DNA from: Salinirarus marinus
GTDB lineage: Archaea > Halobacteriota > Halobacteria > Halobacteriales > Haloferacaceae
Direction: 5' to 3'
DNA: 32,000 nucleotides
Assembly (NCBI RefSeq): GCF_030734185.1
Contig: NZ_CP132292.1
Span: 2,776,271-2,808,270, forward strand
The notes under the pieces: generated by a model
Database searches by the model: none
What the model saw: the letters and a program-made list of their open reading frames with translations, nothing else
What the model was told of the DNA's origin: nothing
Made by a program: the position numbers and the translations under genes
Shown here: positions 2,900-19,744 of the stretch, one piece after another
How the letters are laid out: every line of letters starts with the position of its first letter
Position numbering within the stretch: the first letter of the stretch is position 1

Positions 2900-2945
2900 A
2901 CTGTCTCTCGAATTGGTTTTGTGTGCTCGGCCCCAACCCACGCCT

Positions 2946-3560: not shown

Positions 3561-3608
3561 CGGGGCTATCCCGCGAACCTAAGGCGTTCGAGTTCGTGGC
3601 CCATCCGT

Positions 3609-4988: not shown

Positions 4989-5003
4989 CGTCCCGACGAC
5001 GTC

Positions 5004-5117
5004 TCACTCCGTCTTCGGCGTCCCGTCGAAGTGATACTCCGCGGAATCGTCCTGTGGCTCGTAGCCGAGCAGTTCCTTCGCGCGGTCGATGGAGTAGTAC
5101 TTGCGTTCGTTGTCGGA
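5004..5117. repeat. attL: duplicated 3' end of the epimerase gene (non-functional fragment)
   Basis: Identical to 18860-18973 except 5053 T versus 18909 C. On the minus strand it encodes the last 37 codons plus stop of the epimerase, with no upstream gene body. Confidence 0.9.
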
Positions 5118-5233
5118 AGATTACGCGACGGCGAAGCCCTCGCTTGCCGTGCAACTCGCTACGCGACTCGCCCGCCGCCGTCGACGATTTCGCGGGTTCG
5201 TGGGTGGACGTCACCCCGTCGGTTCGGAGAACC

Positions 5234-6274
5234 ATGAACACCCGAACCACTGACGCCCCGACCGAACGGGGACCGAGACTCGAACCGCTCGAACCAGCCA
5301 AAGCGAAATCACTGTATCTCAAGTCGCGGCGGGACGAACTGGCCGCCCGCTCACTGGAGCTACATGAGAAACACGTCGGGTCATTTGTCGACTTCTGTGA
5401 CCGCGAAGGTATCGACAACATGAACGGCGTATCTGCCAGAACAGTTCACGAATATCGGCTTGAGATAGCAGAACGGCTGTCTCAATCGACGCTCAGTATC
5501 TATCTCTCGACTGTTCGGCAGTTCGTCGCATTCTGTGAGAGCATTGACGCCGTCGCCCCGAACACTGCGGAACGAATTGTCCTTCCCGACCGAAACCGTA
5601 ACGCCCGCTCCGAGACGTTAGACGCCGACGACGCGACGGCGATACTGTCTCATCTCCGCAAATACTACTACGCGAGTCGGACGCACGCATTGATGGCGCT
5701 TCTGTGGCACACGGGAATACGGACGGGGACGGTTCACAGTCTCGACGTGAGCGATTACGACGCCGAACGGGACCGTCTAAGAATCCGCCACCGTCCCGAG
5801 ACGGATACCCCGCTCAAGAACGGCGAGAACGGGAATCGCTATATTGCACTGTCGGGAGACGTTTCGGACGTTCTCGACGATTACATCTCGGAGTGTCGCC
5901 AGGAAGTGACCGACGAGAATGGGCGTGAACCCCTCTTTACGACGAAACAAGGGCGGGCGACGAAGAACACTATTCGACGGAACGTCTACGCCGCTACTCG
6001 CCCCTGTGCTACAGGACAGGGGTGCCCACACAACAAGAACCCCGACGAGTGCGAGGCCGCAGAACGGACGAACGCCGCCAGTCTGTGCCCGTCGACTGTG
6101 TCGGGTCATCCCGTCCGTCGCGGAGCAATCACCCACCATCTACGCCAAGACGTTCCAGAAAAGGTCGTCTCTGATAGGATGAACGTCAGTCAAGACGTCC
6201 TCGAAGAATTTTACGACCGTCGAACCGAGGACGAGAAAGCGGAGCAACGTCGCCAATTCATCAAGAACGTCTAA
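5234..6274 (+). CDS. int: tyrosine recombinase / phage-type integrase
   Basis: Start at MNTRTTD; the longer ORF from 4889 reads through attL. SAM-like N-domain. Catalytic-type motifs LLWHTGIRTGT (Arg), GHPVRRGAITH (HxxR) and the C-terminal LEEFYD (Tyr). Confidence 0.9.
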   Translation: MNTRTTDAPTERGPRLEPLEPAKAKSLYLKSRRDELAARSLELHEKHVGSFVDFCDREGIDNMNGVSARTVHEYRLEIAERLSQSTLSIYLSTVRQFVAFCESIDAVAPNTAERIVLPDRNRNARSETLDADDATAILSHLRKYYYASRTHALMALLWHTGIRTGTVHSLDVSDYDAERDRLRIRHRPETDTPLKNGENGNRYIALSGDVSDVLDDYISECRQEVTDENGREPLFTTKQGRATKNTIRRNVYAATRPCATGQGCPHNKNPDECEAAERTNAASLCPSTVSGHPVRRGAITHHLRQDVPEKVVSDRMNVSQDVLEEFYDRRTEDEKAEQRRQFIKNV

Positions 6275-6374
6275 TTCGGATTACATCCCTATCAAATTTT
6301 ATTCATATCACATATCGTATCATGGAACGGGGGTATTTTTAACCACCCGTACATATCACCTCAACGTAGTCCAC

Positions 6375-6613
6375 GTCGGAACCCCACTCTACCCAGGGAT
6401 TCTCGGCAAGGGCTACATGGATAGACCCATCCATGACCAACTCCAACTCCTCCCGCAACGAACAGGAGGAAGAAAGTCAGAACGCTTCCACTCTGAGGGG
6501 ATTGCAGACCCTCAAGTTGGTCCTTGAGACGATATTGACGGCCTTGCGGCTACTCAGAGTGTTGTAACAGGTGGTGGTTACCGACCGTCTCGGTCGGAAC
6601 CCCACTCTACCCA
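6375..6613. repeat. pair of perfect 21-nt direct repeats (6375-6395 and 6593-6613)
   Basis: GTCGGAACCCCACTCTACCCA occurs twice, 218 bp apart, bracketing a 44-codon ORF. Confidence 0.8.
6433..6567 (+). CDS. possible 44-aa small protein (below the ORF-track cutoff)
   Basis: ATG 6433 to TAA 6565-6567 gives MTNSNSSRNEQEEESQNASTLRGLQTLKLVLETILTALRLLRVL: a polar N-half and an amphipathic or hydrophobic C-half. No other support. Confidence 0.3.
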   Translation: MTNSNSSRNEQEEESQNASTLRGLQTLKLVLETILTALRLLRVL

Positions 6614-6783
6614 TATAGGTGTAGTACAATGTACCCCATTAACCTTTGCACTAAATGTGAGTTTTCAATCTTTCTGTAAAATCCCGTTCCTTAGGCCTTC
6701 TCACTGTCATATTGAATGGAAATCATGTGGATTTCTCTGTATTCATCACGATTTCTTGAACGCTTTTCTCGGAAGTTGTCCCC

Positions 6784-7296
6784 CGTCCACAGTCGGGACA
6801 GTCGGATACACGTCCGCGCTATCTCGCTGTGAGATTGACGTAACGGGGATTCACTGGTATTCGATCTTCGGATTGCTAACCGAAATTGGTCAAACCAGGG
6901 GACAAGAGACTAACCCCTTCTTGCCTACGAATCCGCCTTTGCCACAGTAATGACGGGGTGCATACTGTATGCGTAACAGTAATTATAATTGAAGAATCCA
7001 TCCCCCTCGACTGGTAGCAACGGCGTCGTTGACGCCATTCTCGTCAAGGCGATCCAGATTCATCATGGCCATTTGGAAGGCCGTCCACTCGTCCACAGTT
7101 GGGACAGTTGTTCCCACTTCCGCGCTAATCACTGTGAGATTGTCTTGTGAGGGATTCTACGGTATTCGAGATACACACGGTGGATACCACTTAGTTTCGG
7201 TTCGAGTGTGTGCAAGGGGGCCTTACACCACTTTCTCAATCACTGCGGGCCTATCCTCTCGTCCATAGCGGGACAGTCAGATACACCTTCGCGCCT
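6784..7296. repeat. dispersed ~80-bp repeat family (copies 6784-6864, 7090-7169, partial 7260-7296)
   Basis: Shared core is CGTCCACAGTYGGGACAGTYG...TCCGCGCTA..., continued in the two full copies by CTGTGAGATTG...GGGATTC...GGTATTCGA. It explains the shared STVGTV..TSAL peptides in ORFs 6657..6950 and 7029..7268. Confidence 0.75.
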
Positions 7297-7780
7297 TCTA
7301 TTTGGTCATTTTCTATCAAAACATGGATAGAAAGGGGGCGAAATAGGCAGTGAAATTAGTTTCGGGATTGTGATAGGTGGGATTGAATCACCGTTACGTC
7401 GTGCGATTAGCCAAATCGTCTTTCTATCGGTGTAGTACCATACACCGAGATATTATCTCTTACTTCACTCTGTGGACCCACGGGGATTGACCTTCGAGGA
7501 CGGATTGACTTTCACGTATTAGTACAATCTTGGCTGGATTCAACTGGGGTGATTGACTGAATCAGTCTTTTCTCTTAGCCACCATATAGTCGCGCCAATC
7601 TCTCGGGGATACCTCAATAGTAGATCGACTGGGAGGGAAAGAGACGGTGGTCGACGGCGTGTCTCGTCGCCCCGATACCCTCACCGCAACACACGGGTAT
7701 CGTGACGCCGTCGCCCCGCACGTCGCCACACACCGCAGTCACGGTGGGGGGATAGACAATTGAGTCAATCAGCTACGGGA

Positions 7781-7835
7781 CTTAACCAACAACAAACACA
7801 GGAACGCTACACGTTGGTTAAGACCGAGAAAAAAA
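7781..7835 (-). terminator. oligo-T plus hairpin terminator for the minus-strand gene 7845..8108
   Basis: On the minus strand a T7 run (7829-7835) lies 10 nt after the stop. It is followed by a perfect 10-bp inverted repeat, CTTAACCAAC/GTTGGTTAAG (7781-7790 / 7813-7822). Confidence 0.5.
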
Positions 7836-7844
7836 GAGAGTTGC

Positions 7845-8108
7845 TTACGATTCGAGAACTTTGTGGGCGCGGATACGGGACTTCTGGCCCTCAAGCCAGT
7901 CGCGGGGGAACAAGTACCGTTTCTCGCCGTCAGTGAGGAGCGCACGCCCGTCGGGGGTGATTTGACTGATTTTCAGTTGGCCGAGAGACGACGTTTCGAT
8001 CTTCTGGCCTTCCTCGAACGGCCCCCAGTAGTCGTCAGGCATCGGTTCGAGCTGTTCTGCGCCGAGTCCGACCCTTTCGAGCAGGTCGGTGATGTCATTT
8101 TCAGACAT
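7845..8108 (-). CDS. hypothetical acidic protein (87 aa)
   Basis: ATG-initiated ORF with acidic composition and a terminator-like signal downstream. No recognisable motif. Confidence 0.55.
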   Translation of the reverse strand: MSENDITDLLERVGLGAEQLEPMPDDYWGPFEEGQKIETSSLGQLKISQITPDGRALLTDGEKRYLFPRDWLEGQKSRIRAHKVLES

Positions 8109-8507
8109 TGCACTCTCACGTAGGGGACGGTATTACTTCATTCTTTAATTTTCAAAGATATGAAATAATGTCTAACCGAATAGACACCCTGTACCCCCTG
8201 AACCCGCCCCCGTGAAGATTAGCTCAAGGTTGGACGACTATGTCAGTGGGTGGAGGGATTCCCTCTCCCGCCAAAGAAGGGAAATAGACTCGACGGTATC
8301 CCCACCCCGTCGAAAATCTGTGAGGGAGAAATTTCCGAGGGGGCAGATCGGGTCAGAAATTTTTTGGCGAGATACCAGAGGTTTCGCGGCTTCAAAGGGG
8401 CGCGGAAGTTGGATTCGCCGTCACGCGATACATGACAGGCGATTAACCTCCGCGCAAATACGGGGCGGATTTCAGACTGTTGATTAGGAATAGTCAATCA
8501 CCCATAA

Positions 8508-8518
8508 TTTTATTTAAA
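8508..8518 (+). promoter_or_regulatory. TATA-box-like element for a leaderless plus-strand operon
   Basis: TTTATTTAAA is centred about 28 nt upstream of ATG 8541, the spacing expected for haloarchaeal leaderless mRNAs. The same TATTTAAAG string recurs at 17329 and 17661. Confidence 0.5.
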
Positions 8519-8540
8519 GAAAGAATTACCATACTGCCAT

Positions 8541-8774
8541 ATGGTCGTTGCCGAATACGTCTGGTTGGTTGGTTCACCCATTTCCCTACTTCTATTGGGA
8601 TTTCTCGGATGTTGTTGCCAGCAACAACAACAGCAACAGCAGATCGTGACCGCCGATAACGACGATCCGAAACGCGTTTGTCCCGAATGTGGGATGGAAA
8701 ACCCTACAGACGCGGATTACTGTGGGGACTGTGGATTCTCGTTCTCCTCGGGCGGAGGAAATGCCGATGAGTGA
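8541..8774 (+). CDS. small membrane protein with a poly-Gln tract and a C-terminal zinc ribbon
   Basis: N-terminal hydrophobic helix (WLVGSPISLLLLGFLGCCC), then Q8, then CPECGxxNxxxxxYCGDCG (CxxC...CxxC). Confidence 0.7.
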   Translation: MVVAEYVWLVGSPISLLLLGFLGCCCQQQQQQQQIVTADNDDPKRVCPECGMENPTDADYCGDCGFSFSSGGGNADE

Positions 8775-9216
8775 GGAAACCGAACTGACCCTTGATGATG
8801 TTGATCAACGGAAAGCCAGTGAGCTGAAAGAATACCACTTAGAGAAAATCAGAAAAGAAGCTGAGAGTACAAATGACCCAGGCCCGCTCTATCTACGAGG
8901 CAATCCGAGGATTAGAGGTGGTGCTGTTGTCGGGCTTCTGGTCTTTGGAACTGCGTTCGGCGCATTAATCATGCCAACATCACCCGAAGCAGCGGCTATG
9001 TTCGGAGTGATGGTGAGCGGCGTAGGATTGTTTACGATTACCCAGTGGGGAGTAGCTACAAGGCGTGCCCTACGGGATGCTGAGACAGGTAATCAGCAAC
9101 AACAGCAGGGGAAGCCTTCATCCAAATCCAAGCAGATATGCTCAAACTGTGGATGGAAAAATCCGAAAGCAAACAATTATTGTCACGATTGCGGTGCTGA
9201 ACTGGATTCAGAATAG
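8761..9216 (+). CDS. membrane protein with two TM helices, a poly-Gln tract and a C-terminal zinc ribbon
   Basis: Start MPMSEE overlaps the upstream stop. Two hydrophobic segments, then QQQQQ, then CSNCGWKNPKANNYCHDCG. Paralogous design to the previous gene. Confidence 0.7.
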   Translation: MPMSEETELTLDDVDQRKASELKEYHLEKIRKEAESTNDPGPLYLRGNPRIRGGAVVGLLVFGTAFGALIMPTSPEAAAMFGVMVSGVGLFTITQWGVATRRALRDAETGNQQQQQGKPSSKSKQICSNCGWKNPKANNYCHDCGAELDSE

Positions 9217-9579
9217 ATGAGCAACGTTCTCGACAGGTTGTTTCGAGTATCCCAAATCTTCCGCTCGTATCCCTTTTGTCACTCTCGACCCGACCGCTCG
9301 TTTTGCTACCGAGGGCGTCATTTCGGACTGTGCGCTCGATGCACGACGATGTATCTCGGTGGGTTGCTGACGATGATCTCATTTCCGATGTGGCGACCCG
9401 TCTCCCCGCTCGTTTTGATTGCGGTTAGTGGTCTGCTACTGGTTCCAGGAGGAGTTGACGGAACCACACAAATGTTTGGCGACCGAGAAAGTACGAACAC
9501 CTTGCGAGCGATTACTGGCTTTCTATTGGGTGGTGGGGTCGTTACGACCGTCTATGCTGTCGTTTCGATGCTCTTGTAA
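9217..9579 (+). CDS. DUF2085-like membrane protein
   Basis: CHSRPDRSFCYRGRHFGLCARCTTMYLGG matches the CHxxxxRSF...CARCTGxYxG signature I recall for DUF2085. Hydrophobic segments follow. The ATG directly abuts the upstream stop. Confidence 0.65.
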   Translation: MSNVLDRLFRVSQIFRSYPFCHSRPDRSFCYRGRHFGLCARCTTMYLGGLLTMISFPMWRPVSPLVLIAVSGLLLVPGGVDGTTQMFGDRESTNTLRAITGFLLGGGVVTTVYAVVSMLL

Positions 9580-9836
9580 CATCGGACGCGGAGGTGGTTG
9601 ACCGTCACACAGTTCGTGACGGAGAATCCAATTTCCGCGCCACCCGAGAGACAGCCTCTACCCGCCGAATAACCGAATGCAACTGTAAGGGAGAATTACC
9701 GACAGTCCCACCGACTCCGAGTAAGTCGGGGCAGGAGGATGAGACGGAAAATAGCGACGGTACGGGGTGTTAGTACACGGAAGTCGAATCCGTTATCGCG
9801 GGACCGAGATAGCGGGGGTGCGTCCGTGTTCGAGGG

Positions 9837-10376
9837 CTATGGGACGAACAGGGAATTAGAACGAGAAATGTCGAGTGCAGTGATCCCGCCGTTACTGTTC
9901 GTCGATGCCGCCGAAACATCGACGACCGCGCCACGGTCCCCGCCGTCGACGTGGATGCCGTCTGATTCGATTTCCAGCGAGTGACCGTGGGCCTGTACGA
10001 TGGCGTTACCGTTCGGCTTCAATCGTACCTCCGCGTCACTGTCGGGGACGCCAATGACTCGCTCACCTGGGTCGTACTCGGGGGGTGAATCCGATTCACT
10101 GTACAACACTCCGATGACGACGGGAACACCGTCTCGACGCCGAATCATGAGGACCCTATCACCAACTGACGGGATATGGGCGTCTCCGACCATCTGAGTC
10201 GTCACAATTGCCGCCGAATCCTGTCCCGTCGAATCGGCGCGGACCTGGACGTGGTGACGCACGTCGTCGCCCTGTTGGTGAGCCTTCACAGAGACGACGG
10301 TTCCGCGCTCCGCGAAGGCCATTTCACGGTTGAACCGACCGACACTTTGGGCGTGGCCGTGGGGATTTCGGGTCAT
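9837..10376 (-). CDS. gpV / gp45 / gp5-like baseplate spike (OB-fold) protein
   Basis: GTVVSV...HHVQVR, then PSVGDRVLMIRRRDGVPVVIGVLYS, then a beta-rich tail. This resembles the N-terminal OB domain pattern of P2 gpV / Mu gp45 / VgrG-gp5. ATGA overlap with the upstream gene. Assigned from memory only. Confidence 0.55.
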   Translation of the reverse strand: MTRNPHGHAQSVGRFNREMAFAERGTVVSVKAHQQGDDVRHHVQVRADSTGQDSAAIVTTQMVGDAHIPSVGDRVLMIRRRDGVPVVIGVLYSESDSPPEYDPGERVIGVPDSDAEVRLKPNGNAIVQAHGHSLEIESDGIHVDGGDRGAVVDVSAASTNSNGGITALDISRSNSLFVP

Positions 10377-11695
10377 GCATCCTCCCAGACTACATCGCTA
10401 ATCTTGATTTCGGACTCATCGACGTGGAAATTCACGTCTAATTTCGTGTTCGGAATTTCGTACTCGGGGTCGGTGCGGTGGACCACTGAATTGATCGACC
10501 ACGTAAGCGGTTCGGCGTCTACGTCGATGACAGCTTGGTCGGCGGGCAATGCGCGGATTCGGTCGTAGGGACCAAGTTGTGGGGCGAGAACGCTATACAT
10601 CCATCCGCCGCCATCCGAATCGCTCAATAGGTCTGCAAGATAGCTCCTTGCCGCCGCTTTAACCTCTCGCTCGGAAGCCGAATCGACCTGTATTTGCCGA
10701 CTCGCATACTCGCCGCCTGCCCGTTGTACCAAGTCGTCGTACACTGCCCGAACGCGGACGTAACGTGAAGGAGCGGATTCGGCAGTCCATTGACTGTCTA
10801 AGGGTTGGGCCGAACGGGACTTTTTGGCCGCTCCGACGGCGACGACAGAGTTTCGCAACTGGGTTTGGTATAAGGCTCTGTTCTTGAGGAGTGCCACGTC
10901 GCCGTCTCCCGTCGCGTCATATTCACTCCCAATCTCGGGCAGGGAGTTGATGTGCGCGACGACGATTTCCAGCGTCTCGAAGTCCTCGCTTGGGCGAAGC
11001 CAGTACCGATAGGGTCCGCCTCGGTTACGAATCCACCGTAACACGTCGAGAAGGGTCGACCGATTCCGAGTAAATTCGCGGCGACCAAGAGAACCCATCT
11101 CGGGATCGATACTCTGTACGTCGCTGGCCGCATTCAGACTGGTATATGACTGATTTTCTGCGGCTGATTCGACGCCGACGACGTTTACCTCTGGGAACAC
11201 TCCCGCGTCCTCTAATTCGGACGCTATGTACTCCAGAGGAATTTCTGGGGACGGATTGGTGAACCGACGACTCGCGGGGATTTCTTCAAGCACGTCGGCT
11301 ACGTCGTTGACGGTGAACTGTACCGAATCCTCTCCGCCGCCGATTCCGCCAACCCATCCCCGAAAGACGGGCGTGAAGTCACCATCCTTGTTCAACGGGG
11401 AGCGAAGGGCGATTTCAACGGGGATTAGACCCGCACGGGAGGTAACGTCGACGAGTTTTCCGTACTCGTGACCGTCAACCTGCCACCGAGTTTTCACCGT
11501 CGCATACCCCTTTATTGAGGGGTTTTTCGTCTTACGGAGTTCGAGGTTTACCCCGAGTGAGGGAATGCGGGTTCGGGATTTGCCGATGAGGATTCGATCT
11601 GGTGCTGGATTCGGGGGGTCGAAGTCGGGAATATTCTCCGAGTCGCCACCACTCCCCTCGGCAGAGAACGCGGAAGTGTTGTCTGATACGCTCAT
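10373..11695 (-). CDS. gpD / gp27 / VgrG-like tail hub protein
   Basis: The block VFRGWVGGIGGGEDSVQFTVNDVADVLEEIPASRRFTNPSPEIPLEYIASELEDAGV resembles the conserved F.G.V...R.F.n.s..ei block of gpD/gp27-type hubs. It sits between the TMP-like and gpV-like genes, as in Mu and P2. Needs an HMM search. Confidence 0.5.
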   Translation of the reverse strand: MSVSDNTSAFSAEGSGGDSENIPDFDPPNPAPDRILIGKSRTRIPSLGVNLELRKTKNPSIKGYATVKTRWQVDGHEYGKLVDVTSRAGLIPVEIALRSPLNKDGDFTPVFRGWVGGIGGGEDSVQFTVNDVADVLEEIPASRRFTNPSPEIPLEYIASELEDAGVFPEVNVVGVESAAENQSYTSLNAASDVQSIDPEMGSLGRREFTRNRSTLLDVLRWIRNRGGPYRYWLRPSEDFETLEIVVAHINSLPEIGSEYDATGDGDVALLKNRALYQTQLRNSVVAVGAAKKSRSAQPLDSQWTAESAPSRYVRVRAVYDDLVQRAGGEYASRQIQVDSASEREVKAAARSYLADLLSDSDGGGWMYSVLAPQLGPYDRIRALPADQAVIDVDAEPLTWSINSVVHRTDPEYEIPNTKLDVNFHVDESEIKISDVVWEDA

Positions 11696-12156
11696 GAATC
11701 GAGGAGAGATTGGCCGAGCGACTGGTTCGTATCCTCGCGTTGCATTAATTGAAACGTGTATAGCGGCTCCGTTACGGGGGTTCCCTGAAATGTGTAGTTG
11801 CCTCGCTGTTCCTGGTCGTTTCTATCCCATTTGAACTGGTCAAATACTGCCATTCCTGTATAACCGTCCGTTATAATTTGAACTTTCTCTGTGGAGCGAA
11901 CCAACTCAGTCAGCTCCTTCAGTTCTGGGCGGAACAGGTACCCTTCCATCGTGAAGGTTACACCCATATCTCCCGTCTGCGAGACGTAGGTGCGACCCCC
12001 AGTGCCATGGGCAACATCGGTATTGAGCGGAAGTGTTCCGCCGACGCGAGTCACTACGGGTGGTTGTACGACTTCATCCTGATCTGGATCTCGGATAGTT
12101 GGACGGACTTCCCCCAACGTCGCAAGTTCAGTAGCAGTTGGTTCAGATGTAGACAT
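11692..12156 (-). CDS. hypothetical protein; distal-tail / tube-initiator-like by position only
   Basis: 154 aa. TAATG overlap with the TMP-like gene and ATGA overlap with the hub-like gene. Appears beta-rich. No motif recognised. Confidence 0.4.
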   Translation of the reverse strand: MSTSEPTATELATLGEVRPTIRDPDQDEVVQPPVVTRVGGTLPLNTDVAHGTGGRTYVSQTGDMGVTFTMEGYLFRPELKELTELVRSTEKVQIITDGYTGMAVFDQFKWDRNDQEQRGNYTFQGTPVTEPLYTFQLMQREDTNQSLGQSLLDS

Positions 12157-13739
12157 TATATCCCCGAAGCAAATTCACTGTCACGGCGCGTTCCTTCCAT
12201 GTAACTCAGCGTCTCGGTAATTCGAGTGGCATCTTCGCGGGAGTTGGCGTTGATGTTGTAGTTCTTGTAGACGACGTTGCCTCCAGCAACACCGCCACCA
12301 CCACTGAATCCGCTCATCGAACCGAAGCCACCAGTGTTCGCACTCACTCCGTTAAATTCGCGGAGGGCGTCGGTGGCCGAACGGATTCCTCCTTCGAGGG
12401 AGACGAACTGGGAGGTAAGCCATCCAATCCCCGCCGCGATACCGAGGGTGAGAACCGAATAGAGCGTCATCAAGGCCGCACTCAACGCATACGACTGGAG
12501 GGTAGCCATCAACTCGGCGGCAGTCATTCGTTGGAATGCCGCCGCGTTCATCTGAACTGCCCCGAACAGACTCAACAGTCCACCCTGAAGCGAGTTGTTG
12601 ACGACAGTGTACATTGCCGATACGGAGAGAAGGGTTAGGAGGACGCCAGCGAGAGCGCCCATAACTTCGAGGCCGTATGGGAGAACGTTCAGGATTTGCC
12701 CCAACCCACCGAACATCATCATAATCCCCCGAGTCGCGGCGAGGAATCCAAGGGATAACTCGTAGATGATCGGAAGGAATCGTCCAAGGTCGGTGACGAT
12801 TGCGGCGAGGAGCGGCAACGTATCGGCCAAAACGCTACCAAGGAGTGCAATCATGTTCACGTCGGGGAATCTCTCTCCCAACATCGTGAACAGTGGCACG
12901 GCCATCTCACCGAAGGCGACGACATCCGCCAGTACGGGAGCGGTGTTCCGTGAGAGGAAGTGGGTCAATGCAGTGAAATCGTCGGTCAACGACCGAAGAA
13001 CGCCTGCATTGCGACCCAAATCACGGACGAGGAAATTCAGGTCACGGAAGGCTTCTTCGACGACGGGGACGAAGGATTCGGCTATCGGGCGGAATGCCTG
13101 TACAAACGTATTTCCGAGGCGGGTTATCCGCTGTTGTAAGCGTCTCACGGATAATCCGTCGCCTGTCATCGCCATTCCTAACAGGCCCAGTCCCCCGATG
13201 GCCGCAAGGCCACCTGCGGCGGCAAGGGCCGCTCCCGCCAATGCACCGAGGCCCGCAATGGCGGCGGGGAGCGCACCGATGAAGGTCCCCATCATGGGAA
13301 TTAACGCCGCGAGAATCTTGAAGAAGTCACCCATGACGAACTGTAAATCGAGGAACTGGTCGGTGAGAGAATCACGTTCACGGACTCGAATCCCTGGGTC
13401 GTGATAGATAGGGAGTCGGATGGGTTGTCCGCCGCTGGTCATGGCCTCACCCGCAGACGATGCAGTAGACGAAGCAGTGGAGGCCGCGCTACTCACCGTT
13501 CCCGAAACGTCGGAATCAGTATCCACGTCAACGTCGACGCCACTGTCGATGGTATCCATCGTCGCGGCGACCGCCTGAAGCTCCGCTAACGTTTCAGAGA
13601 CGCCGTCGACACCAACTTCGATGTCGAAGACGGCTTCCTCCAAGGAGCCGATTCGATACAGTTGCAGTTCAAGTTCGGTGAGAACTGCCGAAAATTCATC
13701 CTCAACAGACGCTATAAGGTTTAGTTCTTCCGTAGGCAT
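12156..13739 (-). CDS. tape-measure-like protein with multiple hydrophobic/glycine-zipper segments
   Basis: 527 aa. Acidic coiled-coil-like N-terminus, a Ser/Thr-rich linker, then many Ala/Gly/Leu hydrophobic stretches (GALPAAIAGLGALAGAALAAAGGLAAIGGLGLLGMAM...) as in TP901-type tail tape-measure cores. Gly-rich C-terminus. Confidence 0.55.
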   Translation of the reverse strand: MPTEELNLIASVEDEFSAVLTELELQLYRIGSLEEAVFDIEVGVDGVSETLAELQAVAATMDTIDSGVDVDVDTDSDVSGTVSSAASTASSTASSAGEAMTSGGQPIRLPIYHDPGIRVRERDSLTDQFLDLQFVMGDFFKILAALIPMMGTFIGALPAAIAGLGALAGAALAAAGGLAAIGGLGLLGMAMTGDGLSVRRLQQRITRLGNTFVQAFRPIAESFVPVVEEAFRDLNFLVRDLGRNAGVLRSLTDDFTALTHFLSRNTAPVLADVVAFGEMAVPLFTMLGERFPDVNMIALLGSVLADTLPLLAAIVTDLGRFLPIIYELSLGFLAATRGIMMMFGGLGQILNVLPYGLEVMGALAGVLLTLLSVSAMYTVVNNSLQGGLLSLFGAVQMNAAAFQRMTAAELMATLQSYALSAALMTLYSVLTLGIAAGIGWLTSQFVSLEGGIRSATDALREFNGVSANTGGFGSMSGFSGGGGVAGGNVVYKNYNINANSREDATRITETLSYMEGTRRDSEFASGI

Positions 13740-13761
13740 AATTTAGATTCGATAAACTCGT

Positions 13762-13953
13762 TCAACTTCGCTGATCTTCGACCGTTACTTCGTCGTCGGT
13801 TTCTTCGGGAGGCCATACCTGCCGTCCGCCGTCCCCATCATCCCAGACTCTCCCGTCGTCACTGATGGTGAAGCGGTCTTGCTCGTAGAACCGTTCGGGC
13901 ATTTCGGGGAATGGCCGCCCCAACTCCTCGGGAATTGGACTGTCGTCGCTCAT
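13762..13953 (-). CDS. hypothetical acidic protein (63 aa)
   Basis: ATG at 13953 overlaps the upstream stop (ATGA). MSDDSPIPEELGRPFPEM... is acidic. The ORF-track version from a TTG at 14031 is probably too long. Confidence 0.45.
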   Translation of the reverse strand: MSDDSPIPEELGRPFPEMPERFYEQDRFTISDDGRVWDDGDGGRQVWPPEETDDEVTVEDQRS

Positions 13954-14237
13954 GATCTGTCTGAATGCTCCCAACACTTGTCGCCGCCGTCCTCCGTATC
14001 TGCCGCACGGGGAGGTTTGCCACAGAACCAACCACTCTCAAGCTCCGCGCCACAGCGACCGTAGTGGTCGGCTTCCTCTTTGCTCGGAAGCCCGATTCTC
14101 GGATCGCGGCGGAGTTGACTCAGCGATTTCTCGTCTTCGAGGTAGAGGGGATGGTTCCGATACGGCTCTAAATCCCCGTATTCTTCCTGCCAATTCGTAT
14201 ACGGTTTGCCGACGCGTTCGACTCGTTCTCGGGGCAT
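13950..14237 (-). CDS. hypothetical protein with a Cys/His cluster (possible zinc-binding)
   Basis: 95 aa. HYGRCGAELESGWFCGKPP...DKCWEH. TAATG overlap with the upstream gene. Confidence 0.5.
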   Translation of the reverse strand: MPRERVERVGKPYTNWQEEYGDLEPYRNHPLYLEDEKSLSQLRRDPRIGLPSKEEADHYGRCGAELESGWFCGKPPRAADTEDGGDKCWEHSDRS

Positions 14238-14503
14238 TATTTCGAGGGTAGATCGTATGTCTCACCCGATTCGTACTCCGTTTCGTCGTCTTCGGACTGT
14301 GAGGAGGACTCACCATCTGCCGATAGCGAATAAGTCTCACCGTGCTTATATTTCGGCATCTCGTCGTCGGCGGTGTCGGTATCGAAGCCCGCGTCCTCTG
14401 CGAATCGGACAAGCTCCTCAACGCCGTCATGCAGTTGTGCAATTTGGTCGACGGTCAAATCAGACACGTACTCCGCGAGCGAAGTTTCATTCCAGTCGGT
14501 CAT
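14237..14503 (-). CDS. hypothetical, very acidic protein (88 aa)
   Basis: ATG-initiated operon member. The C-terminal half is rich in D/E/S/T. Confidence 0.5.
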   Translation of the reverse strand: MTDWNETSLAEYVSDLTVDQIAQLHDGVEELVRFAEDAGFDTDTADDEMPKYKHGETYSLSADGESSSQSEDDETEYESGETYDLPSK

Positions 14504-14810
14504 TGTCGATTAGGTAAGCGCGAAATTGATTCTGGGTCGGTTCAGTCGTGGGGGTGACGTGGAGTTTGGTCCTCGGCCACGGTTCGATTTCGAGATACTC
14601 GTTTTCGCCACTCGGAAGGGTCGCTGTGGCGATTTCGTGAGCGTCCTCGAAGGTCGCATCTTCGACGCGGGTGGCCGAAATCGAAATGGACACTTCCGCG
14701 TCCAAATCGTTACAGAATTGAAGGCGGTTAGGCGGGGGAGAATCCGCATCGAAGGTGAAACTGTGCGGATTAGTGTCGCGGATTTCAACTTCTGTGATCG
14801 TCTCACTCAT
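14487..14810 (-). CDS. hypothetical protein (107 aa), apparently beta-rich
   Basis: Start MSETITEV at 14810 overlaps the upstream stop by 8 nt (ATGAGTGA). The ORF-track start at 14837 is less likely. Confidence 0.5.
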   Translation of the reverse strand: MSETITEVEIRDTNPHSFTFDADSPPPNRLQFCNDLDAEVSISISATRVEDATFEDAHEIATATLPSGENEYLEIEPWPRTKLHVTPTTEPTQNQFRAYLIDNDRLE

Positions 14811-15324
14811 TCGCCACCTCAACGGAGAGTGAAACATCGGTGTAGTCGGGTTCTTCTTTTATTGCACTCTCCTTCAGATACTTCGGCGGGGGATTCTCGT
14901 CTAAATGCTTATTGTAAGCTCGCCACTCCCGCCATGCTTCTCGCAGTTTTTTCGCATCCTTCAGTTCGGCTTCGGGTTCGGCGTCTTCGTACAGTTCCCG
15001 AAGATCGGTTGCGTATTCGAGGGCCAGGAAAGTCAGAGCATCCTCCCGATTCGCCCCGCTCATTCCGATATGATTTGCCGCATCCGCCGCCCGACTCCAC
15101 GTCGCTTTCGAGCAACGGACTCGTTGGGGGCGTCCCGATTCATCTAACCGCTCTTGGACTTCATTTCGCTCCCATTCCTCTCCTGCCATCTCACCGTAGT
15201 GGTGGATGAGGAGGATAAGCGGCGTGTCGACGCGTTTCGCATCCCCTTTACCGAGATTCGTGTTATCGAGTTTCGTCTTCGCTTTGCTACCGATTCGGAT
15301 TCGTTTAATTTCTTCCGCGTACAT
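14803..15324 (-). CDS. hypothetical charged protein (173 aa)
   Basis: ATG lies 8 nt downstream of the Rep stop. Likely helical, Lys/Glu-rich. No motif recognised. Confidence 0.5.
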   Translation of the reverse strand: MYAEEIKRIRIGSKAKTKLDNTNLGKGDAKRVDTPLILLIHHYGEMAGEEWERNEVQERLDESGRPQRVRCSKATWSRAADAANHIGMSGANREDALTFLALEYATDLRELYEDAEPEAELKDAKKLREAWREWRAYNKHLDENPPPKYLKESAIKEEPDYTDVSLSVEVANE

Positions 15325-15334
15325 TGTGTTGTAA

Positions 15335-16525
15335 TTAATTGTTGTCGTCTTCTGATTGTTTGAGTTTCAATACTTCATCGTCGGAGGGAAAGCCCCGTGA
15401 CGTTGCGAACCAGTTCCGCGACGAAACCCAGGCCCCGACGGCGCGGTCGATGTGCCACGGTTCCGTATCGCCTGCAAGGGCGAAGTGCGGTAACTGCGAC
15501 CCAAGATAGACACACCCTGCCGTCGGGGGAATATCTCGGAGTGAATTGACTACGCCTACCTCTCCGTAGGTATCCGTCGCCCGAGGCGGGTCGTGTTCGA
15601 CGGTCACTGTCCCTCTCTCAACGTCGTGTGACTCCCAGGAGGCCCGTGGGGTTCTCTCTACGAACTTTGCGACGGCAGGGCGAAACCATTCGGAATCAAC
15701 TACGTCGTGGGGATCGTCGACCCAGAGGTACAGGTGACAGTGGGGGGTGGCCCACTGTCTCGTGGCCGAGATAATCCGCGCCCATTCCACGTCGAACCCC
15801 CGTTTCTGGGAGAGGGCGTATCGGATTGAATCCATGACGGCGGTCATGTTCTGAAACAGGTCTTCCCCCTGTTGATATGGCGTAACCACCCTCCCCGTCT
15901 CGGGGTCGACGGGGGACTGTCTCAAGCTGATCATGACCGTCGTTACCCCCGTCATGTCGATTTTGAAGTAGGCATCGGCGTCTCGCAACTTTGCGTACCG
16001 TTGCCGAGCTTGCCGTAGTTTTGACGTTCTGTACGGCCCGTCGTCGCCGTCGTCGTCCCCGCCGTCATCACTGTCATTCTCCCCGACGCCGACGCCAAGG
16101 TCGGGGTCATTTGCCGTGACGAGACGGGTGTAGACGTTCCTCGCTGTTCCTCGCATGATGGGGCGCGGATGGTCGCATACGTCGACGGTATGTTCGCCTT
16201 TACCCTCGGGGTCGTGATGGTCAATCGACCACTCCTCGCACCCGCAGGTGACGAGAGGGTCGGGGAGTCGGGAGCAATCCACCGTCGGGGGTGCGACCAG
16301 TCCTTCGTCGTATCGACTGGGTGGGACTCTGTGGTCGGAGGGACTTCGGGGTTGTTTGTCTTTTTCCCCAGTCGCACATATAGTCTCGCCGTCCCGTTCG
16401 TGTTCGGTCCACTCCTCCCACTCCTCCCTTTGAATGAAACGGACGGGGGGATCACTTGGCTCCCGTTCGTGATAGGGCGATGGGGATAATACGTCGCCGT
16501 GGAAGTGGCGGGGGATAGACGCCAT
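15335..16525 (-). CDS. rep: HUH-superfamily rolling-circle replication initiator (Rep)-like protein
   Basis: Ordered motifs: TTVMISLRQ (motif I-like), ATPHCHLYLWV (HUH as H-C-H followed by hydrophobics), and a downstream GCVYLGSQLPH (candidate catalytic Tyr). N-terminal Cys/His cluster and an Asp/Gly acidic insert. Confidence 0.55.
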   Translation of the reverse strand: MASIPRHFHGDVLSPSPYHEREPSDPPVRFIQREEWEEWTEHERDGETICATGEKDKQPRSPSDHRVPPSRYDEGLVAPPTVDCSRLPDPLVTCGCEEWSIDHHDPEGKGEHTVDVCDHPRPIMRGTARNVYTRLVTANDPDLGVGVGENDSDDGGDDDGDDGPYRTSKLRQARQRYAKLRDADAYFKIDMTGVTTVMISLRQSPVDPETGRVVTPYQQGEDLFQNMTAVMDSIRYALSQKRGFDVEWARIISATRQWATPHCHLYLWVDDPHDVVDSEWFRPAVAKFVERTPRASWESHDVERGTVTVEHDPPRATDTYGEVGVVNSLRDIPPTAGCVYLGSQLPHFALAGDTEPWHIDRAVGAWVSSRNWFATSRGFPSDDEVLKLKQSEDDNN

Positions 16526-16708
16526 CGACTATCCCTCCGACCACCTCCGCTGAAATAGCAAATATCCGAAAGGTTTATTAACCCGACAGTAGAATAGTCT
16601 ACCGTCGGTGAACGATACTCCGTCGCCGTCGCTACTGTTTGCGAACTTGCCCATAATCGTAGTTCCTTCGGGGTAACGGTCCCTACACCGTCACCCGCTC
16701 TTTTTTTA

Positions 16709-16870
16709 TCAGTTCTTCGAGATGAACGCGTCGTTTTCCTCGATTAGCCGTTCAATCGTCACCCGATAGGGAACGTCTTCTGTCCCAAACAGGGCGACAC
16801 TGGCGTCGTCGAGAAGCTGTTTGTCTTCGTTACGAACAGTAATGGTGCAGTGGTTTTCTGATGCAGGCAT
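16709..16870 (-). CDS. ribbon-helix-helix (CopG-like) small DNA-binding protein (53 aa, below the ORF-track cutoff)
   Basis: Hand translation: MPASENHCTITVRNEDKQLLDDASVALFGTEDVPYRVTIERLIEENDAFISKN. A beta-strand (TITV) followed by two helices is typical of RHH. Located just upstream of rep in the same orientation. Confidence 0.5.
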   Translation of the reverse strand: MPASENHCTITVRNEDKQLLDDASVALFGTEDVPYRVTIERLIEENDAFISKN

Positions 16871-16933
16871 GGTGCTGGTATGAAAGGTGGGGGAGTTTCA
16901 CCCCCGAACGCTATACAATTGCTACTGACTTTT

Positions 16934-17111
16934 GCGTTTGCGTAGCAAACGCACGCAGGCTGTTCGTTGCGTAGCGCCGAACAGACTCCGATAGAGAGAT
17001 AGATTGGGGGCAAAGCCGCGTCCCCCGTACTGAAACCGCGCATCGACTCCGAAACCCCGAGTCGGACATCACGTACCGACTCGGAAACGCCGACTCGAAC
17101 GCGGTGAGTCG
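16934..17111. promoter_or_regulatory. candidate double-strand origin: two hairpins plus iterons
   Basis: Hairpin 1: GCGTTTGC-GTA-GCAAACGC (16934-16952). Hairpin 2: CTGTTCG-TTGCGTAGCGC-CGAACAG (16960-16984). Both expose TTGCGTAGC. Two 21-bp repeats CGACTCSGAAACSCCGASTCG lie at 17044-17064 and 17077-17097, with an extra GAGTCG at 17106-17111. Confidence 0.45.
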
Positions 17112-17254
17112 GCATCCCCGATGGGAGTAGAAAGGGGGTGGCTCCCGAAAAGGGGTATGGGCAAGTTCTGGGGGCTTGAATCTGCGACCCCCGCACTAAA
17201 CGGCCCGTTCCCCACTTCCCCTCAATACTAAAGACTACCCAACTAAAATCGGGC

Positions 17255-17810
17255 TTTCTGAACAGGTAATTTGACAGTCTTACGGTTCGAGACGGTTCGT
17301 ATCGGCAGTTCCGTGAATCTCCCGAGCCTATTTAAAGGTAATCTGACGCAATTACAGTACCTCTCACTATACGTGTAGGGCGCGAAAAATCCGCCATACT
17401 CAATCAGTAGATCGGGCTTATCAGTCCTCGAAGCCGTCCAGAATCGACGTTTTCGTGGTTTCACAATGGCTTATAAAGGGTGAAGTAGGATTGATTGTCC
17501 CAAGGCAGGGACAGTGATTGACTTCACCGTCCATCTCCGTCGTCGTCCTTCTCTCAATGCTCCCTATCTGGCGAACAAAACACGGTCTTCCGAACGGTTA
17601 ATTTCACTCTCTCAAGCCGCGAGAGAAGTAAAATCGCCTGTTCCGTGATTTTCAGGGGCCTATTTAAAGGTATTTTGCCGCAATTACGTTCCTCTCAATG
17701 CTCCTTATCCCCCCATCATAATTTCGGGATTCGCCAAATCAGAACAGTCGATTTCTGACGGCTAACCGCCTCGAAACCGTCGAATGTTGATTTTAAATGG
17801 GGTGAAAAAG
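17255..17810. repeat. two diverged ~215-235-bp repeat copies spaced ~330 bp apart, each containing a TATTTAAAG box; no convincing ORF
   Basis: Best-conserved core is GTTCCGTGAWTYTC...GCCTATTTAAAGGTAWTYTG.CGCAATTAC..YCCTCTCA, at 17308-17367 and 17640-17697. Weaker similarity extends about 50 nt upstream and 110 nt downstream. Confidence 0.7.
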
Positions 17811-18322
17811 GGTATTGGGCGAACGTGTTGTTATCAGTCCTATTTTTTGACTCTCTAATCCCTTTCGTGAGAACGGTCATAGACGGTTCCTACGAGACTG
17901 AAGCAGTTGGAGGACCAAAACCACTTGGATAAGCGCGAAGGTTCAGATTATTGCTCATAGACCAAACGTGAGAGATTGTGAAGCAACTGACCGTCAAGGC
18001 ACAGACGGGGAATCCAACATCACCCCACCACGAGAAGCTGTGCGGCGCGGGACTGTGAGGTGAATCTACTATCTACGATAGGTAATCCAACATCACGGCA
18101 AGATAGACTAAGTGTGTATCTTCCGTGGGATACACCTTCTATTGAACGGAGCGATTGCGTATCGTTCCACCGTCCTTCCCCTGTTCGGACGGTCCTCACT
18201 ATGTAGGTATATAACTCAACAACAAATAGACTTTTGATTGTGTCTCGGGATACCCCTCTCGCGGTAGTACTGGTATTCCAAACGGGGAAACACCCAAATG
18301 TCAGGTCAAAATAGCGTTCTTC

Positions 18323-18604
18323 ATGCTCAGCCCAGAATTTTGGTTGGTGATTTCTCTCCTGTGGTTCGTCGTTGCGATCCTCACCGCGAAAGACGCGCGA
18401 AAGCGAGGTATGAATCAGCTGTTCTGGCTCTTAGTGGCGATTATTTTCGGAATATTTGGTGTCGTAATCTACCTTCTCGTCAGAAAACCTCACCCCGACC
18501 GACGAACAACCTCGGATAGCAATCGGGACGAATTTACTACTAAATCATGGGATGAAATTGACGACGAACCAGCGAGTATGTCGTCTACTTCCGAGAAAGA
18601 GTAA
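18323..18604 (+). CDS. small membrane protein, PLD-nuclease N-terminal (PLDc_N)-like
   Basis: Two TM helices (FWLVISLLWFVVAIL and LFWLLVAIIFGIFGVVIYLLV) with a basic loop between them, then an acidic tail. The pattern resembles the PLDc_N small-protein family. Confidence 0.6.
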   Translation: MLSPEFWLVISLLWFVVAILTAKDARKRGMNQLFWLLVAIIFGIFGVVIYLLVRKPHPDRRTTSDSNRDEFTTKSWDEIDDEPASMSSTSEKE

Positions 18605-18859
18605 CTCGGAGGCAGTTGACTGTGGCGAGCTTGCCACAGCGGGGTGTCGTCCGCGCCAATTCCAATATGCTCACCCCAAGAATGATAGTGGTTCCCAATG
18701 AACTACGCCCGAACCGACGGATGGCGAACCATCACCGACACAGCGTGTATGGCTTCAAAATCAGGGGTTCGAGAGAGTCCCCTGTTTCGGGTGGAACTAC
18801 CCCGTCACTTACCAGTGGCGTGACAATCCTGAAAAATCAGAAAACCGCAAGAGGGAAGG

Positions 18860-18973
18860 TCACTCCGTCTTCGGCGTCCCGTCGAAGTGATACTCCGCGG
18901 AATCGTCCCGTGGCTCGTAGCCGAGCAGTTCCTTCGCGCGGTCGATGGAGTAGTACTTGCGTTCGTTGTCGGA
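18860..18973. repeat. attR: 114-bp repeat forming the genuine 3' end of the epimerase gene
   Basis: Direct repeat of 5004-5117. Starts exactly at the epimerase stop codon (TCA on the plus strand at 18860-18862). Confidence 0.9.
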
Positions 18974-19645
18974 GATGCCGTAGACGATCTCATAGCCGTA
19001 GTCGGCGCGCACGCAGCGGTCGAACAGGTGGGCGCAATCGCGCCACGAGAGCCACATCGCCTGTCCGCGTTCGTAGTTCCGCGGCGGGTGGTCTTTCGTG
19101 AGGTTGCCGATGCGGACACAGACGACGCTCAGTCCGTGTTCGTCGTGGTAATACCGCCCCAGGACCTCGCCCGACGCCTTGCTCACGCCGTAGAGGTTGC
19201 TCGGCCGGGGCAGTTCCGTTCCGTCGAGGCGGTAGTCGTCGTCCGCTCGGTACATCTCGGGCGTTCGCTCGTCCGTCTCGTAGGCCCCGACGGCGTGGTT
19301 CGAGGAGGCGAAGACGAACTTCTCGACGCCCGCCTCGACGGCCGCGTCCAGTACGACCTGCGTGCCGTCGATGTTGTTCCGGAGGACCGAGTCCCACGGC
19401 GCTTCCGGCCGTGGGTCGCCGGCGAGGTGCACGACTACACCGACGTCGGCCATCGCTTCCCGTACCGCCTCCGCGTCGGTCACGTCGGCGACGTACACGT
19501 CCTCCCGGTCGACGCCGTCGGGGACGCTCTCCGCGGGAAGCGGCTCCCGGTCGAGGAGCCGCCAGTCGTGGTCCGTCGCGAGTCCCGAGAGGATGGCCTG
19601 TCCGACGCGCCCGCCCGCGCCCGTCAGCAGAACCGGGTCGTCCAT
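18860..19645 (-). CDS. NAD-dependent epimerase/dehydratase family protein
   Basis: MDDPVLLTGAGGRVGQAI Rossmann GxxGxxG motif. SDR-type YxxxK (YGVSKASGE). 261 aa, acidic. Confidence 0.9.
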   Translation of the reverse strand: MDDPVLLTGAGGRVGQAILSGLATDHDWRLLDREPLPAESVPDGVDREDVYVADVTDAEAVREAMADVGVVVHLAGDPRPEAPWDSVLRNNIDGTQVVLDAAVEAGVEKFVFASSNHAVGAYETDERTPEMYRADDDYRLDGTELPRPSNLYGVSKASGEVLGRYYHDEHGLSVVCVRIGNLTKDHPPRNYERGQAMWLSWRDCAHLFDRCVRADYGYEIVYGISDNERKYYSIDRAKELLGYEPRDDSAEYHFDGTPKTE

Positions 19646-19744
19646 TCAGGTGTCAATGTAGCCACCGAGACTAAGTATTGTCCGGTTCCCGTCAACTGCC
19701 GGGACGCCGGCGACGTTTATGCGCGTCCGGCGCGTATCGGTGGT

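Follow-up and report, generated by a model that had tools for sequence, protein, structure and literature searches.

Organization of the locus

The window analysed here, a stretch of 32,000 nucleotides from the chromosome of Salinirarus marinus, harbors an element of 13.9 kb between two direct repeats, the right one of which is the 3′ end of a gene for an NAD-dependent epimerase/dehydratase (Table 1). Between the repeats are found a gene for a tyrosine integrase of the SNJ2 family, a gene for a putative rolling-circle initiator (Rep) and four genes that resemble those for the tail tip of myoviruses. We consider it very likely that a mobile element of plasmid origin has been integrated here site-specifically into the chromosome of S. 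marinus. An earlier description of the window, which we call the original prediction, had read its content as replicon- and virus-like, and this is borne out by the rolling-circle Rep on the one hand and by the tape measure, hub and spike genes on the other hand.

Table 1. Features of the element and its target gene (positions in the window; ORF, open reading frame; att, attachment site; aa, amino acids)
Feature	Position	Strand	Evidence or remark
attL, orphan copy of the last 37 epimerase codons and the stop codon	5004..5117	minus-strand reading	CAG (Gln) at the mismatch
Spacer of 116 nt from att to integrase start; element arm, presumed integrase promoter	5118..5233	+	same 116-nt spacing in Haloarcula saliterrae (L096, 9884 to 10001)
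SNJ2-family tyrosine integrase, 346 aa, intact	5234..6274	+	Pfam Phage_integrase 3.5e-11; PHROG integrase 7e-29
Non-coding-like stretch, GC 0.48-0.52	6275..7844	.	no convincing ORF
Acidic ORF, 87 aa	7845..8108	-	no family match
Small zinc-ribbon protein, 77 aa	8541..8774	+	
Membrane protein with C-terminal zinc ribbon, ORF of 175 aa	8689..9216	+	Pfam Zn_Ribbon_1 7.3e-06
DUF2085 membrane protein, 120 aa	9217..9579	+	Pfam DUF2085 4.2e-25
gpV-like central spike (baseplate assembly protein V, N-terminal OB domain), 179 aa	9837..10376	-	BLASTP 1e-12 to HATV-2 gp26
Predicted tail baseplate hub, gp27 / Mu gp44 / P2 gpD / VgrG-N fold, 440 aa	10373..11695	-	
Small protein between tape measure and hub (HATV-2 gp24 position), 154 aa	11692..12156	-	tblastn 5e-10 to 141-aa protein of L090; 7e-48 to L092
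Tail tape measure protein, 527 aa	12156..13739	-	tblastn 1e-10 to HATV-2 gp23; 1e-26 to 655-aa protein of L090; 9e-69 to L092
Two coupled ORFs, 95 aa (13950-14237) and 63 aa (13762-13953)	13762..14237	-	ATGA stop/start overlap; no family matches
Three ORFs, 88, about 107-116 and 173 aa	14237..15324	-	173- and 88-aa proteins beside Rep in L083 (tblastn 1e-30, 2e-05)
Rolling-circle initiator, HUH type, PF07232-related, 396 aa	15335..16525	-	homologues, profile, motifs
Small protein upstream of Rep, 53 aa	16709..16870	-	conserved upstream of Rep or hub in L083, L084, L088, L089
Non-coding stretch, GC 0.48-0.52; candidate origin or regulatory region	16871..18322	.	
Small PLDc_N-like membrane protein, 93 aa	18323..18604	+	Pfam PLDc_N 5.4e-05; PHROG 17707 6.7e-10
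attR, working 3′ end of the epimerase gene	18860..18973		CGG (Arg) at the mismatched codon
NAD-dependent epimerase/dehydratase (SDR family), target gene, 261 aa, intact	18860..19645	-	Pfam Epimerase 2.7e-25

Boundaries of the element and the empty site

The two att repeats are each 114 bp long and differ, exactly as the original prediction said, in a single base (5053 T, 18909 C); their identity breaks off abruptly at both edges, and they are the sole long repeat which a repeat search found within positions 4500–19500. The first letters of the repeat are TCA, which on the opposite strand reads as TGA, the stop codon of the epimerase gene. The repeat therefore spans the last 37 codons and the stop codon of this gene, and the mismatch is non-synonymous. 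With one att copy included, one unit of the element comprises 13,856 bp. The abrupt change in composition that had been noticed between the repeats is real, as the GC content is 0.543 between the repeats and 0.678 and 0.677 in the flanks. Likewise, the roles assigned to the two copies hold: the right copy is the real C-terminal end of the epimerase gene, which aligns with its orthologues over residues 1–261, and the left copy is an orphan fragment beside the integrase gene, an intact ORF that starts 116 nt to its right.

Orthologues of the epimerase gene were found at 514 loci. The closest available genome, a metagenome-assembled genome of the Haloferacaceae (L002), has 87–91% nucleotide identity to the window and an epimerase that is 91% identical over residues 1–261. 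The window positions 2932–5117 and 18860–19689 align to one contiguous stretch of this genome (L002 12891–9957), in which the homologue of the left flank of the window is located directly after the epimerase stop codon; attL is contiguous with the host flank DNA that aligns to this empty site. In Halegenticoccus soli (L035), synteny is found on both sides of an uninterrupted epimerase gene. Since neither of these two genomes, the closest relatives available, has an interruption at this site, the S. marinus element is an insertion. In addition, in the 80 species whose epimerase genes are most similar, no element proteins are encoded within 10 kb of the gene. Thus, the comparison for presence or absence in related genomes, which had been proposed along with the original prediction, revealed an uninterrupted site in the nearest available genomes. 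The opposite scenario of 14 kb inherited vertically at this locus was not seen, the elements found at the same site elsewhere sharing only the integrase, the att and once the hub gene.

The integrase and its choice of target

The match of the integrase to PF00589 (3.5e-11) is above the cut-off and the match of its N-terminal part to the SAM-like domain PF02899 (2.4e-4) is just below it. Over 96% of its length, the protein shares 43.6–44.7% identity with the betapleolipovirus integrases of SNJ2 and HHPV4, where membership in the SNJ2 family is defined by an identity of at least 30% over at least 60% of the protein (PMC8371274). An alignment with the integrases of SNJ2 and HHPV4 shows R163, H292-x-x-R295 and Y327 as invariant residues, and the catalytic lysine was assigned by eye to K195 (PLKNG), the column of which is not invariant.

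The module of S. marinus resembles the SNJ2-type module surveyed by Wang et al. (2018, PMC5861418) in its homologous integrase with SAM-like and catalytic domains and the residues R..K..HxxR..Y, in the site-specific integration with flanking direct repeats and in the coupling of integrase and att within a subgroup at a fixed spacing. Nevertheless, in that survey almost all predicted att sites overlap a tRNA gene, three are intergenic and none was reported in a protein gene; att is located downstream of the 3′ end of the integrase gene, and the core of SNJ2 has 14 bp (PMC5861418). On the contrary, the att of S. marinus is the 3′ end of a protein gene and is located 116 nt upstream of the integrase start, and the block of identity in the elements at the epimerase site comprises 101–114 bp.

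Close relatives of the integrase are numerous in protein searches, with about 55 clusters of at least 65% identity, and two of them were placed in their genomes. In Haloarcula saliterrae (L096), a low-GC element of ∼7.5 kb (GC 0.48, compared to 0.63–0.66 in the flanks) lies between an integrase gene whose product is 78% identical and the orthologous epimerase gene, with a perfect repeat of 101 bp (L096 9784–9884 and 17405–17505) at a distance of 116 nt from the integrase gene. In Halomicrobium salinisoli (L097), the integrase is 76% identical and belongs to a remnant of ∼3.5 kb without other called genes, the repeats of which have 113 bp and are 94% identical (L097 9833–9945 and 13449–13561). 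Both loci keep the neighbourhood of the window with epimerase, DHNA, DUF5790 and creatininase. Since integrases of 76–78% identity are found at the same epimerase end in two genera, the targeting of a protein gene is a property of the integrase clade. This also explains an observation of the original prediction which we could confirm, namely that a protein gene was chosen despite the presence of nearby tRNA genes, as the choice of the target belongs to the clade.

A second protein gene is used as target on a metagenome contig of 141 kb (L093), which carries the only element that was found by a metagenome scan with the integrase alignment and which was seen in several samples (also L094 and L095). 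This element of 10.5 kb (L093 3734–14300) codes for an integrase with 54% identity, a hub and a spike. Its repeats of 67 nt (93% identical) cover the 3′ end and the stop codon of a DUF7331 gene coding for 66 aa, and its att is located 112 nt upstream of the integrase gene, which is the same layout of att before integrase.

Protein genes have been reported as targets in archaea, for example the HMG-CoA reductase gene in case of virus BJ1, and att sites of more than 100 bp have been reported in Thermococcales, but according to the same review recombination at such protein-gene or very long att sites had not been tested (PMC8371274). The elements described here are similar in both respects. However, those cases belong to other integrase families (PMC8371274), whereas here one protein-gene target is common to an integrase clade across two haloarchaeal families. 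This common target with its replacement segment of 100–114 bp and the reversed arrangement of att and integrase gene are new in comparison to the known systems.

Crossover and origin of the epimerase C-terminus

The end of the att proximal to the integrase gene is conserved. In the stretch 5092–5117 (GAGTAGTACTTGCGTTCGTTGTCGGA), 23 of the 26 positions are invariant in the three genera and the empty site; when the six att copies at the epimerase gene are considered together with the empty site, GAGTAGTACTT, TCGTTGTC and four other positions of this stretch are invariant. The conserved stretch GAGTAGTACTTGCGNTCGTTGTCGGA encodes the motif SDN(D/E)R(K/R)YYS, and the core is GAGTAGTACTTGCG…GTCGGA. 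A repeat tool found no dyad symmetry in the core, and by eye a palindrome of 6 bp, AGTACT, is seen at 5096–5101.

By geometry, the DNA on the stop codon side is host DNA in the left copy and element DNA in the right copy, and three observations are in line with this. In H. saliterrae, the perfect identity of 101 bp turns sharply into synonymous divergence over the last seven codons. The gene copy ends with CGA GTG GTT GAG CCC GAT GCT TAG and the orphan copy with CGG GTC GTC GAA CCG GAC GTC TGA, which corresponds to the peptides RVVEPDA and RVVEPDV before the stop, so that the codon differences are almost only synonymous; moreover, the gene copy is poorer in G+C at the third positions, as is the element. 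In Hm. salinisoli the gene ends with RVVEQC, and the orphan copy keeps RVVEPDA. The orphan copy of S. marinus keeps Gln like its closest relative and the gene copy has Arg, but this point is weak because the position varies among genera. From these differences we infer that a replacement copy of the epimerase C-terminus is maintained on the element and that the crossover would take place on the gene-upstream side of the differences, which in S. marinus is the interval 5054–5117 / 18910–18973. The epimerase is likely to remain functional after the insertion; it would stay intact because the copy of the element would supply its C-terminus.

Thus, we suggest the following mode of integration. The circular element would carry its own copy of the epimerase 3′ end (attP), and the integrase would recombine this copy with the chromosomal gene, probably in or near GAGTAGTACTTGCGNTCGTTGTCGGA. 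The element-borne copy would then become the C-terminus of the epimerase, and the original end of the host gene would be left orphaned beside the integrase gene. After excision, the element would be replicated in rolling circle mode by the HUH-type Rep, with a small RHH-like regulator encoded upstream.

The tail-tip genes

The genes at 9837–13739 code for proteins of 527, 154, 440 and 179 aa and are collinear with a block of a myovirus contig (L090) that codes for proteins of 655, 141, 435 and 181 aa (tblastn E-values 1e-26, 5e-10, 2e-26 and 6e-21, the last for the spike and the 181-aa gene after the hub). On this contig a gene for a 106-aa protein, Baseplate_J and Mu gp48 are found beyond the block and the tail sheath is found upstream. 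The myovirus HATV-2 (Soleiviridae) has the same order of tape measure gp23, gp24, baseplate hub gp25 and baseplate assembly protein V gp26; direct homology is seen for three of the four proteins with HATV-2 and for all four with L090. A further contig (L092), which is too short to be classified, codes for a tape measure, a small protein, a hub and a spike that are 32–57% identical to those of the window. In addition, the tape measure has weak matches to tape-measure families of PHROGs, and the spike matches Pfam Phage_base_V below the threshold (E = 0.029).

For the hub, 198 representative homologues were found, and an AlphaFold (AF2) model built on 54 of them reached a pLDDT of 85.5 and a pTM of 0.85. 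In a Foldseek search of the PDB this model matched hubs of contractile injection systems, VgrG, Mu gp44, T4 gp27 and the tail of HFTV1 with a probability of 1.00 and E-values of 1e-13 to 1e-10, and in BFVD it matched a protein of HGTV-1 (Halogranum tailed virus 1) named 'late control GPD'. As judged from the hub fold of the model and from the position of the gene between tape measure and spike, the protein is a baseplate hub. By sequence, neither hub nor spike had a significant match to solved structures, and the model of the spike obtained from its single sequence was unusable (pLDDT 36).

Compared to HATV-2, the element lacks genes for sheath, tube, chaperones, wedge (gp25/J/I), fibres, head and packaging, and its spike and hub are shorter (179 versus 305 aa and 440 versus 552 aa). 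Among the ORFs of the element, no capsid (HK97-fold), portal, large terminase, sheath or tube was found with Pfam and PHROGs, and only the tape measure and the hub are larger than 400 aa. Besides the tail block, no protein of the element matches HATV-2 or the L090 myovirus. A frameshifted tail chaperone gene upstream of the tape measure gene was considered and rejected, as the 95- and 63-aa ORFs are separate and overlap by ATGA. In comparison to the known systems, this cargo of a rolling-circle replicon and a myovirus tail-tip set without head genes is new, and in the literature searched we found no description of elements that have only tail-tip genes.

Hub genes are also present at at least five other small loci, of which three are integrated elements with defined repeats. 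A metagenome contig of 10.4 kb (L089) codes for an RHH-like protein, a PF07232 Rep, a spike, a hub and an integrase, and another one of 4.5 kb (L082) for a Rep (63% identical) and a hub (67% identical). Salarchaeum sp. JOR-1 (L088, CP042241.1) has an element of ∼9 kb (4875–13926) with hub, RHH-like protein and a distant integrase (20% identity), whose perfect repeats of 30 bp match the 5′ part of tRNA-Ser(TGA). The other two loci are the L093 element at the DUF7331 gene (hub, spike and integrase) and the H. saliterrae element at the epimerase 3′ end (hub and integrase). Among these five loci, a spike gene is found in three, a PF07232-related Rep in two and an integrase in four; three different targets are used, and head genes are found in none. 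The recurrence of the hub in different replicons and at different integration sites argues that it is kept for a function. Thus, with modest confidence we suggest that the tail-tip set is functional, because hub genes, in part together with a spike, recur at other small loci.

Searches of phage and plasmid collections gave no megablast match for the whole element and no tblastn match for Rep and hub. Scans of IMG/VR with Rep, hub, tape measure, the hub alignment and the integrase alignment did not yield confirmed relatives.

The replication module

The putative Rep has a very small family of close relatives, with only four homologues in a word-indexed search, and was assigned via these homologues. 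One of them (P0004) reaches PF07232 with 4.6e-11 and 42.7 bits (cut-off 23), and a profile of the four sequences matches the PF07232 Rep of L089 with 1.1e-11. Like the Rep proteins of PF07232 (DUF1424), the protein has the three conserved HUH motifs, namely TVMISL (uTuT-like), PHCHLYLW with HCH, and YLGSQL; in an alignment that includes the Rep of L089, no variation is seen at T196/V197/L201, P261-H262-x-H264 and Y340-x-G342-x-Q344-L345. PF07232 is the family of the ORF1 Rep of the alphapleolipovirus HHPV1 (PMC13107129). The protein of the window differs from the PF07232 Rep proteins in its sub-threshold score and in an additional N-terminus of ∼170 aa. These residues 1–170 are rich in Cys and His (e.g., CGCEEWSIDHH…C.H), are present in three close homologues and absent from the Rep of L089, and may form a zinc-binding domain for DNA recognition.

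The L089 homologue of the 53-aa protein encoded upstream of the Rep gene matches Pfam RHH_1 below the threshold (E = 0.0047), and the protein is probably an RHH/CopG-like regulator. The three ORFs at 14237–15324 have no family matches in Pfam, PHROGs, PADLOC and NCBIfam.

Interpretation and alternatives

The element is probably recent and possibly still active and excisable, as 113 of the 114 positions of the repeats are identical, all catalytic residues are present in the integrase, the key ORFs are of full length, a drift of the GC content towards that of the host is not seen and the site is empty in relatives. On the other hand, the Hm. salinisoli locus, with its ∼3.5 kb left and its repeats of 94% identity, illustrates that elements decay at this very site, and the S. 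marinus element contains two non-coding stretches of ∼1.5 kb and no accessory or excision factor that we could recognise. It might therefore be an old immobilised remnant that integrated as described and is now decaying, unable to excise or to replicate. We regard this as rather unlikely in view of the nearly identical repeats, of integrase, Rep, hub, tape measure and spike ORFs which are full length compared to their homologues, of a GC content that is still 13 points below that of the host and of the empty site in the nearest relatives. A related explanation starts from the collinearity of the tail genes with HATV-2 gp23–gp26 and with the sheath-bearing contig: a full tailed (myovirus) provirus of 40–60 kb could have been deleted down to its tail-tip genes. 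This is improbable, as just 13.9 kb are enclosed by near-perfect att repeats, with the integrase gene at one end and a rolling-circle Rep of plasmid type in between; searches did not reveal any pieces of sheath, tube, wedge, portal or terminase genes, and hub genes are found at the five other small loci with various targets and without head genes.

With an integrase that is 44–45% identical to betapleolipovirus integrases, a Rep family that is also present in alphapleolipoviruses and a size within the range of 7–16 kb of pleolipovirus genomes (PMC13107129), the element could also be taken for the provirus of a temperate pleolipovirus. However, when all proteins of the element were compared to the complete genomes of HHPV4 and SNJ2, the integrase was the sole tblastn match, and neither spike nor membrane-protein nor NTPase homologues were found with Pfam and PHROGs. 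As the integrase alone is shared with these two genomes, we have rejected this identity, which appears very improbable. Finally, a free plasmid might have been misjoined to the chromosome through the shared 114 bp during assembly. Nothing specific speaks in favour of such an artefact, although homopolymer indels between the two assemblies of the strain show that the sequence quality is imperfect. Both assemblies (contigs of 2,891,075 and 2,897,202 bp) carry the insertion, and the same layout is present in finished or large contigs of other genera, which makes an artefact hardly credible.

Several observations nevertheless weigh against an integrated, plasmid-derived mobile element that works in the way suggested above. 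When the element was compared to the SNJ2 genome by tblastn, the integrase was the only match, so that the SNJ2 accessory proteins Orf2 and Orf3 have no detected homologues in S. marinus, another difference from the SNJ2-type module; many SNJ2-like elements, however, are without Orf2/Orf3 (PMC8371274). No excisionase was recognised among the proteins of the element. The Rep of the window itself has no Pfam match even at E ≤ 10, and ∼3 kb of the element are non-coding and could be decayed sequence. An exact 39-mer of the att core had no match in the viral and metagenome collections, and no free attP was found there. The position of the crossover rests on one to seven differences per genome. Furthermore, the att copies are 94–100% identical within a genome and differ by 18–26% between genera, and this host-matched near-identity goes beyond simple site-specific recombination. 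We suspect that either the repeats undergo gene conversion or the element is excised by homologous recombination and re-integrates in the same species; both would yield host-matched att copies. To our knowledge, there is no helper virus for the element.

As a plasmid-type Rep is combined with tail-tip genes without capsid genes, the integrated, plasmid-derived element may be a virus-dependent hitchhiker. The likeliest role of the tail-tip set would be to exploit or to interfere with a co-infecting tailed virus in a satellite-like manner. A satellite or an assembly-interfering parasite of tailed haloviruses is the leading but unproven reading, which we put forward tentatively. Similarly tentative is the proposal of an undescribed family of small haloarchaeal integrative elements that has the hub as hallmark, usually a gpV spike and sometimes a tape measure, and that might make its own tail-initiator complex in the role of a satellite or parasite. 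pSSVx, pSSVi and the haloarchaeal SRCEs, which are the satellites that have been described in archaea to date, relate to spindle-shaped viruses (bioRxiv 10.1101/2025.02.15.638363). With these and with the bacterial satellites P4, PICI and cf-PICI the element shares a plasmid-type replicon, an incomplete virion module, a small size and, as is often the case, an integrase. On the contrary, the known archaeal satellites code for a capsid protein or an ATPase, and the bacterial satellites, in the part of the literature available to us, manipulate or encode capsids, whereas the only virion genes found in the S. marinus element are those for the tail tip.

If this reading is true, archaeal Caudoviricetes would have their first satellite system, which would also be the first type of satellite based on functions of the tail tip and not of the capsid. 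A linked novelty would be a clade of the SNJ2 family that uses the 3′ ends of protein genes together with a selectively maintained replacement C-terminus. The cargo points to a recurrent class of elements of 7–14 kb with a plasmid-type replicon and only the tail-tip genes of a myovirus; as satellites or saboteurs of assembly they would add an extra layer to virus–host dynamics in hypersaline environments, and S. marinus is a cultured type strain. In addition, the locus provides a defined attB/attP pair for studying how archaeal tyrosine integrases recognise non-tRNA sites, a point which a review of archaeal tyrosine recombinases in 2021 flagged as an open question (PMC8371274).

Other genes and non-coding stretches of the element

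The true start of the gene for the membrane protein with zinc ribbon is probably near 8761–8767, and the corresponding gene call in L001 has 149 aa. PHROG 17707, to which the small PLDc_N-like protein belongs by its match, is also matched weakly (0.0025) by the gene adjacent to the integrase gene in the H. saliterrae element (L096 11093–11611, minus strand). PADLOC found no defence systems, and the small ORFs did not receive NCBIfam names.

In the stretch 6275–7844 a perfect repeat of 21 nt (6375–6395 and 6593–6613) and a repeat of 41 nt (6824–6864 and 7129–7169) are found, and the stretch 16871–18322 holds a repeat of 111 nt (17245–17355 and 17577–17687) with 70% identity. In neither stretch was an Rfam family found, and at the DNA level neither resembles related elements. 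One possibility is a role as origin or regulatory region, another that they are decayed genes.

Assemblies of the strain and tRNA-associated repeats

The second assembly of the strain (GCA_042663985.1) is labelled Haloplanus sp. GCM10025708. It differs from the window only by one substitution (14496) and by single-base indels, mostly in runs of G or C (10080, 11613, 15742, 16901, 22414, 25387, 25759 and 26630–26631). As the indels cause frameshifts in the genes for spike, hub and Rep, the gene calls of this assembly are truncated (374 aa, 151 aa), and homopolymer frameshifts in one public assembly have thus hidden the module from gene-based surveys.

The three tRNA genes with scar-like repeats of their 3′ ends, which the original prediction had noted in the same 32 kb, are real. 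The tRNA-Arg gene's 3′ end (2440–2467) is repeated at 2566–2593 and 2778–2805, and a unit of 146 nt is tandemly duplicated (2568–2713 and 2780–2925, 90% identical); these repeats (window 2393–2925) resemble att scars that were stacked by earlier events of integration and excision. A scar series of this type is also found at the tRNA-Val gene (window 25746–26054), whose 24-nt 3′ end (25796–25819) recurs at 25917–25940 (96%) and 26031–26054 (88%) with a spacing of 121 and 114 nt. The 18-nt 3′ end of the tRNA-Phe gene (29274–29291; window 29216–30600) is repeated perfectly at 29388–29405, and the synteny with Halegenticoccus soli ends at about 29403. The repeat is followed by a low-GC island (0.46–0.53) with an ORF for a FkbM-type methyltransferase (29641–30510) and without an integrase gene, which is probably another small island or remnant.

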